A stretch of 64,000 nucleotides of DNA, taken from the NCBI RefSeq assembly GCF_003334255.1, contig NZ_QOWU01000019.1; one strand, 5' to 3'. Each line of letters starts with the position of its first letter. Position 1 is the stretch's first letter. Made by a program: the position numbers and the translations under genes. The DNA is from Escherichia coli (GTDB lineage Bacteria; Pseudomonadota; Gammaproteobacteria; Enterobacterales; Enterobacteriaceae). The notes beneath the pieces were generated by a model, which did no database searches, was not told the origin of the DNA, and saw nothing but the letters and a program-made list of their open reading frames with translations. Below, piece after piece: positions 48,132 through 49,730 of this stretch.

Positions 48132-49730
48132 TCAGTATGCGCGCTGGAACAGCCCGATGCCTTCATTGTCATTTGTCGACGTAATTTCATTACACACCAT
48201 CCATGAGCCCGGAACTGAGGATAGTTTGCCGTCAATGCCATCGGTGTTAGCTTTCATATAGTTCCCGCTTGCATCTTTGATTATGGCGCATCGCTTAAGG
48301 CGTGAACCCTGTACAGTTTCTCCTGGCTGATAGGTTTTGTTGAGGTCGGTTACATACGGGGTTAGTGCGGCAATAATGTATGTTCCGATGCTGTAAATTT
48401 CCCCGGGTACCAGCCTTCCGGTTGGCCCTTGTGGTCCCCGTGGTCCGGTTTCACCTGTCGGGCCCTGTGGACCTGCCGGGCCCTGTCTTCCTGTTTCTCC
48501 CTGCGAACCTCGTGGCCCGGTGTTCCCCTGCGGCCCCGTCGGCCCGGCAGGTCCTTGTTGACCCGCTGGCCCCTCGGCCCCCAGTTCCTTCCAGTCCGTC
48601 CATGGACCATTTCCGGTGAAATTACCGTTGACAGCCCTGACAAACTTCCTGATGGGGTTCCATGTAGTGTATTCCTGTTGACAGAAACCCCAGGCTCCCA
48701 TTTTCACGGACAGGTATCCCGCCTGTTCAACGGGGTAGTGCATGGCGGTGGTTGCATCTTTATTGGCCGACTGATAGTAATCCCCGTGGTGTTCTGGTTT
48801 TCCCAGTGTATTGAGATCAACGGTCAGCGCGGTATATTTCGCCTTCTGTGCTCCGCTTTGTGTTGACTGTTGAAGTTGTTGTACGGTCTGGTTTGTGGCA
48901 TTGATTTGTTGCTCCAGTGTTGAGGCTTTCTCACTTGCTGCCTGTGCACTCTGTTTAGCCTGTTCAGCCAGTTTTTCGGCTTCAGTGGCTTTCTGCATGG
49001 TGAGCTGGACTGCCTTTGGTGTTGCAGCGGCGTTTTCGGCGGCGCTGCCCGTTTCGCTGCTCAGCCGGACGATGCCTTTCTGGCTGGTCGTGGCGTCAGT
49101 GACTGAAGATTTTTCATTAATCATTCCTTTCAGCGTTTTGATGGCCTTAGAGGTTGCGGCTGTTTCTTCGCTGTCACTGTCGGTGGCACTGCTCAGTTGC
49201 ACAAATCCCTTTGTGCTTGTGGATGCAGACTGGTGGGTGCCGCTTTTTTCATGTTCTTTGATGGCCTGATCCAGAGCGGCTTTTGTGACCATGACAACTG
49301 ACTGATCCAGTTTAATATTCAGCGCAGAAATATTACTCAGGAGAATAACCATCCTGAATACCTGCTCCCGACCTGAACCTTCCTCCAGCTTCGGTTTGTA
49401 ACCTTCTGCTACGTTGCCAACAGCAATCAGGGCACCTTCATCATCGAATAACCCAATCTCCCTCACCCAGAAGCCGCCCTGGTCAGCAGGAATAACCAGC
49501 TCTGCGGTGACAAAGCTTTCATTCTCCGCATCCTGTGTGATGCTGGAGATATTCCCTTCCCAGACTTTTTTCACCAGTTGTTTTTGCCCTTCTGATGGCT
49601 CCACTTCCTGGCCGTTGCCGTCGCCCACCTGCATCTTTGCCAGGGTGACTTTTTTTCCACCGGGCTTCAGGGCTTCGGCCAGCTTCCGGCGGCCCTCAGT
49701 GGTGATAATGGTTTTGTATTTCTGTGTCAT
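48132..49730 (-). CDS. H: Tail fiber protein gpH with collagen-like Gly-X-Y repeats
   Basis: N-terminus resembles recalled P2 gpH (ITTEG..., [21 protein letters not shown]); central [22 protein letters not shown]... tract. Confidence 0.8.

Follow-up and report, generated by a model that had tools for sequence, protein, structure and literature searches.

The locus considered here raises the question of how a tail fibre that begins like gpH of phage P2 comes to end in a collagen-like tract and a small C-terminal domain, and what that end of the fibre does. The window, a stretch of 64,000 nt from the chromosome of Escherichia coli (contig NZ_QOWU01000019.1 of RefSeq assembly GCF_003334255.1), contains a P2-family prophage that begins near 39.8 kb. 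An initial annotation had named the gene a gpH tail fibre, counted about 20 consecutive Gly-X-Y triplets, and proposed that the tract is recombination-prone and that the part beyond it probably defines receptor specificity. Very likely, the gene provides a P88/Xuanwuvirus-like prophage of the P2 family with its long tail fibre, a homotrimer assembled from modules that carries a mobile collagen-tip cassette. The features on which this reading is built are collected in Table 1.

Table 1. Features of the tail-fibre locus. Positions are those of the window; residue (aa) ranges refer to the fibre protein except in the row for the assembly gene.
Feature	Position	Strand	Extent and basis
Bidirectional terminator-like hairpin	47483..47504		Between convergent gpU (+) and assembly gene (-)
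Tail-fibre assembly (chaperone) gene	47513..48121	-	202 aa (ATG 48121) or 200 aa (ATG 48115)
Mobile cassette, common to lambdoid/Stx-like side-tail-fibre loci	47862..48518	-	DNA alignment to PhiR5 phages
Tail-fibre gene (gpH type)	48132..49730	-	532 aa + stop; ORF and translation
C-terminal tip domain, beta-rich	48135..48410	-	aa 441-532, 92 aa; presumed trimerisation nucleus and receptor-binding end
Collagen-like tract	48411..48581	-	aa 384-440; 19 Gly-X-Y triplets, unbroken; Pfam match
9-bp unit GGGCCGACG (Gly-Pro-Thr), single copy in window allele	48537..48545	-	Codon-level comparison, four alleles
Internal knob domain, R-type pyocin fibre knob homologue	48582..48845	-	aa about 296-383; profile search
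Ala/Gln/Glu-rich low-complexity segment	48843..48998	-	aa about 245-296; composition
Two "phage tail fibre repeat" motifs (PF03406)	48975..49223	-	aa 170-200 and 214-252; Pfam E=5.8e-13, 2.1e-9
N-terminal baseplate-attachment domain (Phage_tail_fib, PF12571)	49281..49730	-	aa 1-150; Pfam E=1.9e-51

In window order, the prophage opens with minus-strand genes (hok/gef, ogr, gpD), continues on the plus strand with sheath, tube, gpE, tape measure and gpU, and then runs convergently on the minus strand through the assembly gene, the fibre, gpI, gpJ, gpW, gpV, tail completion, lysis and head genes. The operon order gpV-W-J-I-H-tfa is given both by the PHROG matches of the neighbours and by the RefSeq annotation of a 99.9% identical locus, and the neighbouring late genes are all intact. 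Among sequenced phages the P88-like Xuanwuvirus come closest; their sheath protein is 73% identical to that of the prophage, and they have the convergent layout as well. A local inversion of the sheath-to-gpU block (41873-47477, plus strand) relative to P2 was considered and rejected, since P88 and its relatives have the identical layout; the inverted repeats at the ends of the block are short and 77% complementary, and so are probably due to chance. The hairpin between gpU and the assembly gene has a 9-bp stem with six G-C pairs and was scored on both strands. A PADLOC scan gave no match for the neighbouring DUF6645 gene, and no tRNA or Rfam family was found within or beside the fibre gene.

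The fibre is encoded by a single open frame of 532 codons in the reverse complement, running from the ATG at 49730 to the TGA at 48134-48132; its start codon overlaps the stop codon of gpI (ATGA). The peptide first described for this interval is thus present, but on the minus strand: a plus-strand reading of 48132-49730 was rejected because its translation is full of stops. A longer listed ORF, from a GTG at 49814, is superfluous. The designation as a gpH tail fibre was borne out by PF12571, which is covered over its full model length, by matches to PHROG tail-fibre families (phrog_988, E=5e-124), and by the position of the gene between gpI and the assembly gene. In a 99.9% identical genome, RefSeq names the protein "phage tail-collar fiber domain-containing protein" (WP_001537173.1). 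The product of the adjacent gene matches PHROG 1141 (E=4.7e-79) and, over its residues 75-184, DUF4376 (PF14301; Pfam E=2.9e-20), and its homologues in PhiR phages are named tail fiber assembly protein. Of its two candidate starts, the ATG at 48115 has the better Shine-Dalgarno spacing.

Over residues 1-245 the fibre is 51-55% identical to gpH/K of phage 186, W-phi and P2-like phages (tblastn), and this identity stops at about residue 245. The Ala/Gln/Glu-rich segment begins there; its 52 residues include 10 Ala and 13 Gln but only five Leu, Ile or Val. It is a probable trimeric coiled coil, like the PCoil region of the E. coli collagen-like prophage proteins (EPcl), an experimentally shown coiled coil that is also poor in Leu, Val and Ile (PMC3368898). 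Next comes the knob. A profile of nine homologues, compared with PDB sequences, matched 6CT8 (E=3e-5) and 6CL6 (E=9.7e-5), with 76 of its 92 positions aligned, and by this measure the domain is a homologue of Knob1/Knob2 of the R1/R2 pyocin fibre. A homologous knob is also found internally in the fibres of a Tunavirus (T1-like) phage and an Aeromonas T4-like phage. The order first proposed, with the tract between a gpH-like N-terminus and a C-terminal domain, therefore holds, but the N-terminus and the tract are not direct neighbours: the fibre repeats, the probable coiled coil and the knob intervene.

The "about 20" triplets proved to be 19, with Pfam Collagen (PF01391) matching residues 384-439 at E=2.6e-8. 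Position X is Pro in 11 of the 19, while position Y is Gln in six, Thr in six, Ala in three and Arg in two, and never Pro. Elsewhere in the protein Gly makes up 8.4% of residues, so the expectation for 19 in-register glycines by chance is about 2e-18. An unbroken PF01391 tract, rich in Pro at X and with no preference for Pro at Y, is the pattern of EPcl-type collagen (compare Table 4 of PMC3368898). In a homotrimeric fibre the tract would form a triple-helical rod; at a rise of 0.288 nm per residue (PMC3368898), its predicted length is about 16 nm, to which each triplet would contribute ~0.86 nm.

The length of this tract is not fixed. Comparison of four complete-genome alleles and eight database variants found 17, 18, 19, 20 or 22 triplets among alleles with identical residues 1-389 (nearly identical in P0149), and 27 in a diverged relative that is 70% identical. 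All indels in the tract are multiples of 9 nt, which keeps the Gly-X-Y register. At the codon level, the unit GG(G/A)CCGACG, encoding Gly-Pro-Thr, is present in one, two, three or four tandem copies among the alleles (two in P0148), and an 18-bp indel is flanked by a 12-bp direct repeat, GGCCCGACAGGT. On the DNA comparison, copy-number changes of the 9-bp unit together with the repeat-bounded indel are the signature of slippage. The few amino-acid differences between alleles are located in the tip. The repeat-number comparison among relatives proposed in the initial annotation thus yielded differences of whole triplets only, and its view of the tract as recombination-prone is directly supported by this length variation on an otherwise constant background and by the position of the breakpoint described next.

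The distal end of the gene and the start of the assembly gene are shared, at the DNA level, with side-fibre loci of quite different phages. Positions 47862-48451 (590 bp) align without gaps to the side-fibre locus of PhiR5_2, a 61.5-kb phage, at 98.1% identity, and 47862-48518 (658 bp) match PhiR5_1, a lambda-like phage with a J-lom-stf-tfa context, at 96.5%. The shared segment starts with the final 5-12 collagen triplets and continues through the tip and the spacer into codons 1-87 of the assembly gene. Its inner breakpoint falls within the tract, at triplets 8-15, and its outer one at assembly-gene codon 87; outside these limits the proximal collagen shows no relationship, and identity in the 3' part of the assembly gene falls to 65-78%. 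Codons 1-87 co-vary with the tip, and the C-terminal part has had a different history. In tail-fibre assembly proteins a variable N-terminal domain binds the distal part of the fibre and a conserved C-terminal domain trimerises (PMC9608196); the outer boundary of the cassette fits this modular chaperone model. On the proximal side, sister fibres share residues 1-388 at 76-83% identity and switch at the motif ELGAE, after which they have either a PF07484 collar and an HxH-rich module or, directly, other small tips.

Exchange between the two kinds of fibre appears to have occurred more than once. In strain DETEC-S792, the tip of the gpH-type fibre differs at just three of 288 nt from that of a co-resident P-Eib-like lambdoid prophage and at 16 of 288 nt from the gpH-type tip in the window, while the two gpH backbones are identical; these differences point to repeated exchange between gpH-type and lambdoid fibres. 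In protein, the window type of tip reads TPYVTDLNK.../VQGS and the DETEC type GPYITDIGR.../VSGS. Among 5,426 complete E. coli genomes, the whole fibre gene was found in 14 and the tip DNA in 28, at 86 places. The 14 gpH-type carriers account for 69 of these, with three to eight each, and the other 14 for 17, mostly one each. Of 11 complete tip carriers in IMG/VR, 10 have fibres of the lambdoid PfN type, whose last tract contains 30-50 triplets; the remaining one is of gpH type. The gpH-plus-collagen architecture itself is found in one 90%-identity cluster of 499 member sequences and in a few diverged variants, one of which bears another tip.

Together these observations suggest how the fibre may be built and how it may change. 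The gpH-type N-terminal domain would dock the fibre to the baseplate, and the two fibre repeats, the Ala/Gln-rich coiled coil and the pyocin-type knob would make up the proximal shaft. The 19 triplets would follow as a collagen triple helix, standing where the sister fibres have their His-rich shaft and collar, and the 92-residue tip would terminate the fibre and touch the host surface. The DUF4376 assembly protein probably holds the tip by its N-terminal half; it is proposed that this grip would cause trimerisation to begin C-terminally, with the collagen zipping up from there. Distal collagen, tip and chaperone N-half would move as one cassette by homologous recombination, in which P2-type fibres are one partner and side fibres of lambdoid (P-Eib-like) or Stx-like phages are the other. 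The Gly-X-Y-coding DNA would serve as the crossover zone, and the same DNA would change in length by slippage of its 9-bp unit.

A broader version of this idea can be put forward tentatively, with somewhat less confidence than an even chance would warrant. Since any collagen tract would offer homology to any other, whatever its flanks, Gly-X-Y DNA may act as a general recombination adaptor that moves tips with their chaperone N-halves among the fibres of myo-, sipho- and podoviruses and that drives the concerted evolution of co-resident tips, of which the gpH-type carriers have three to eight each. If so, the length of the tract (17-50 triplets) would be tuned to the geometry of the virion after each transfer.

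The tip is a distinct C-terminal domain, as the initial annotation had it. It comprises the last 92 residues and occurs at 87-94% identity on otherwise unrelated fibres. No relative was found in Pfam, NCBIfam or the PDB sequences. When 1.84 billion representative sequences were searched exhaustively with phmmer, eight relatives were found, all at least 87% identical, and those retrieved in full each have the tip behind a collagen tract; weak phmmer matches to giant repetitive proteins (P0018-P0024), in several stretches at 28-38% identity, were put down to composition or repeats. Hardly any homologues came from word-indexed searches in which the tip and the knob served as short queries. A remote match (26% identity along its whole length, pairwise E=3e-7) is the tip of P0055, a gpH-type fibre without collagen; no sequenced phage was found when this type of tip was used as the query. 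The connection to the tips of P0041, P0043 and P0044 is moderate and weaker (hhalign probability 63%, E=7e-5), and is not put forward as proven homology. An AlphaFold2 model built from a nine-sequence alignment that included these last three tips is an all-beta domain with a mean pLDDT of 72.6 and a pTM of 0.63; single-sequence AlphaFold of residues 288-532 reached a pLDDT of 34, so that only the alignment-based model of the tip is usable. Matches of this model in BFVD were borderline only. In AFDB50 it retrieved its own family and, with identities of 20-30% and TM values of 0.5-0.63, dozens of proteins of tail fibres and side tail fibres from E. coli, Salmonella, Shigella, Yersinia, Klebsiella, Citrobacter and Pseudomonas. 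These matches make the tip a putative sequence-divergent member of a recurrent small fibre fold that has no solved structure; the fold is predicted to be common to many prophage fibre proteins of enterobacteria.

That the C-terminal part determines receptor specificity, as first suggested, is a reasonable inference from the distal position of the tip and its co-transfer with the half of the chaperone that would bind the fibre; specificity may also owe something to the knob or to assembly protein that stays on the fibre. One alternative is that the host is recognised by the knob, by an assembly protein bound as a cap, or by both, and not (or not only) by the tip, with collagen and tip serving mainly as folding nucleus and spacer. 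There are precedents: the homologous Knob2 of pyocin fibres is the most variable part and was proposed to weigh more than the C-terminal domain in the killing spectrum, and a pair of binding sites some 10 nm from each other was suggested (PMC6116203); the Tfa proteins of Mu and Ur-lambda stay on the virions and contribute to recognition (PMC9608196). The transfer of the N-terminal half of the assembly gene along with the tip would also agree with a part for the assembly protein. However, the knob is conserved, at the identities given above for sister fibres, in front of wholly different distal modules, and so does not track the variable end of the fibre; it is the tip, not the knob, that is exchanged between phage types; and it is in the tip that the few differences between alleles fall. 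This alternative is considered rather unlikely.

Much less probable is that the protein is a prophage-encoded collagen-like bacterial adhesin or virulence factor, of the kind of Scl, Lcl or BclA, and no part of a virion. In NCBIfam the tract does weakly match the collagen-like adhesins Lcl, SclA and SclB, BclA is the best PDB sequence match, and the lambdoid carriers of the tip adjoin Eib/YadA-type immunoglobulin-binding genes. The adhesin matches, though, reach only 27-43 bits, where the curated cut-offs are 325-500, and are limited to the Gly-X-Y repeat, and the protein sequence shows neither a signal peptide nor an anchor motif. Its N-terminus is the gpH baseplate-docking domain, and the gene is translationally coupled in a baseplate operon, with a fibre chaperone next to it. 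Finally, the possibility raised at the outset that the tract is a wrong-frame artefact, or a non-functional repeat in a decaying remnant of a gene, can be set aside: all three minus-strand frames are indeed open across the GC-rich repeat itself, but only one is open over the whole 1.6 kb, with the gpH domain upstream of the tract, a tip conserved as protein downstream and allele indels of whole triplets, so the frame is genuine, and intact late genes and the large cluster of like architecture count against decay.

Recognition as a tail fibre leaves the matter of which known fibres it most resembles. Mosaic tail fibres, and collagen repeats as sites of recombination, are ideas of long standing, and collagen repeats are reportedly recombination spots in antireceptor genes. 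In phages of Streptococcus thermophilus and in lactococcal phages, such repeats are also said to be present in the genes for the antireceptor or tail fibre. There the Gly-X-Y repeats flank the host-specificity region and have been proposed as hotspots of recombination and length variation. Hosts, virion types and flanking domains are presumably all different from those of the present fibre, so that we take the likeness to be confined to the repeat itself. A literature search found no paper on the PhiR phages, nor any on collagen in P2-like fibres.

Closer comparisons can be made within the Peduoviridae. Fibres of the P2 gpH, 186 gpK and P88-like Xuanwuvirus type have the same PF12571 domain and fibre repeats, the same slot after gpI and an assembly gene next to them. 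P2/186-type fibres, and the closest sisters of the present one, end in a PF07484 collar and a His-rich shaft, whereas here the end is a predicted collagen rod with a small orphan tip; Pfam gave no PF07484 match in this protein, and its distal region is not homologous to that of P2 gpH. The slot that separates gpU from the fibre is occupied in P88 by a DNA invertase with an invertible segment for the tip, but in the window's prophage by a single DUF4376 chaperone gene and the collagen-tip end of the fibre, with no invertase. It is evidently at this end of the fibre locus that the lineage varies.

The nearest match for the distal half lies with the EPcl proteins (EPclA-D), E. coli collagen-like prophage side-tail fibres that were biochemically characterised in 2012 (Ghosh et al., PMC3368898). 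They form dumbbell-shaped trimers in which a stable collagen domain is combined with a domain for trimerisation at the C-terminus, and they differ in length by whole triplets; EPclA was identified as a thermally stable collagen trimer by CD, AUC and EM (PMC3368898). The Stx2 phage Sp5, too, has a collagen-like fibre protein at the end of its tail, and this protein is essential (PMC5155283). The present fibre resembles the EPcl proteins in its Pro-rich X and Gln/Thr-rich Y positions, its whole-triplet length differences, its Pf2 repeats and its probable Leu/Val/Ile-poor coiled coil. Its tip is 89-94% identical to the tips of PfN-Col-Pf2-Col fibres of P-Eib-like prophages, an EPclC layout (assignment to EPclC is by layout), and tip and chaperone N-half form the same cassette as in these P-Eib-type EPclC-like fibres, at 89-94% identity in protein and 96-98% in DNA. 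There are also differences. The N-terminus of the EPcl proteins is a lambdoid PfN domain (PF08400, lambda Stf type), not listed by Pfam for the present protein even at E up to 10, where a myovirus gpH domain is found instead. EPcl proteins have two or three tracts, the last of 30-50 triplets, in contrast to the one short tract (17-22) behind a pyocin-type knob here. PfC (PF06820) was not found by Pfam, which excludes EPcl types A and B. With the first 388 residues of the gpH family, neither PfN nor PfC, and a shared tip cassette, the protein is best read as a P2-type fibre that took up a lambdoid collagen-tip cassette.

Two further systems share parts of the plan. R-type pyocin fibres (6CL5, 6CL6, 6CT8; Buth et al., 2018, PMC6116203) also belong to a P2-type contractile tail and have a homologous knob, a rod, a small C-terminal beta domain and a dedicated downstream chaperone, but their rod is an iron-binding beta-helical shaft and their tip a lectin-like sandwich (PMC6116203), where a collagen rod is predicted here; the tip model had no significant structural match to the pyocin tip. 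In BclA of the Bacillus anthracis exosporium (PDB 1WCK), the best PDB match mentioned above, GPT-rich collagen likewise stands directly before a C-terminal trimerising globule.

Overall, the fibre is a real and ordinary case of the known collagen-like mosaic phage tail fibres, and not a new biological system. The present work sets the limits of the cassette at base level, identifies the unit that slips and a knob of the pyocin type, and describes a tip that is an orphan in sequence but structurally recurrent according to its model. It should help in annotating some 500 database proteins of this architecture that now have generic names. For the engineering of P2-type phages or tailocins with swapped tips, it suggests natural, tolerated junctions inside the Gly-X-Y tract and at about codon 87 of the chaperone gene. 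For temperate phages more generally, it provides a base-resolved example of how those of different morphologies trade host-recognition modules: the unit exchanged, of about 600 bp, is the fibre tip plus just the half of the chaperone that fits it, with one border in the collagen-coding repeat.

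The tip of the fibre (its C-terminal residues 441–532) is rare, being present in 28 of the 5,426 complete E. coli genomes. Those among them with the gpH version carry three to eight copies of the tip each, and the other carriers mostly one. The lambda-like prophages whose side fibres bear the same tip are adjoined by YadA/Eib-type immunoglobulin-binding genes (P-Eib-like prophages; locus L024, strain DETEC-S792). Multiple copies of the tip may reflect clonal descent, or else repeated gene conversion among co-resident prophages.

The prophage in the window adjoins ytfP/tamB (about 39790–40600, compared with 10572–12332 of the RefSeq-annotated locus L001), as it also does in strains JNEC-KY204 and DETEC-S792. 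In strain G1/2, a prophage whose fibre region is 99.9% identical is instead adjoined by serS; late regions that are almost the same are therefore found at two separate places on the chromosome. The end of the prophage that carries the integrase falls beyond the window limits. On the chromosome upstream of it there are four RNA elements at Rfam gathering scores, with no relation to the fibre finding.

Features located in the window by profile match or terminator scoring
Feature	Position	Strand	Basis
RpsF leader	9369-9453		Rfam gathering score
ES239 sRNA	29252-29374		Rfam gathering score
STnc450	32726-32783		Rfam gathering score
ES036	32863-32905		Rfam gathering score
Hairpin, perfect 9-bp stem (AACGCCCTG/CAGGGCGTT)	47483-47504	both	terminator score
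DUF6645 gene, 656 aa	53772-55739	-	phrog_143 (PHROG label: function unknown), E=3e-297

Within the late region, the DUF6645 gene has the lysis cassette on one side and the genes for tail completion on the other, a position at which a large gene is unusual for a P2-type late operon; it has no defence-system match in PADLOC. For the tail-chaperone pair gpE/E', which precedes the tape-measure gene (43642–44116; L001 14243–14778), RefSeq gives gpE and a separate 72-nt "hypothetical protein," which suggests that the programmed -1 frameshift product has been left unannotated as such. The gpU and fibre-assembly genes converge on a 37-bp gap containing the hairpin, which scores as a terminator in either orientation.

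The sister fibres P0030 and P0028 match this fibre over residues 1–388; their ends, residues from about 390 to 563, consist of a collar domain and, after it, numerous His-x-His motifs (e.g., SHTHS, GAHTHNF, GDHAHTV, GEHAHTL, and GSHTHTI), similar to the shafts with which T4 and pyocin fibres bind metal. In the window's fibre, this module appears to be functionally replaced by the collagen rod. In phage P88, of the closest sequenced phage genus, the corresponding slot is occupied by an invertible pair of fibre tips, the accompanying assembly genes and a DNA invertase (L007 8251–10955), whereas in the window's prophage (47477–48132) the invertase is absent and there is one fixed collagen-tip cassette; this lineage therefore varies the end of its fibre in two different ways.
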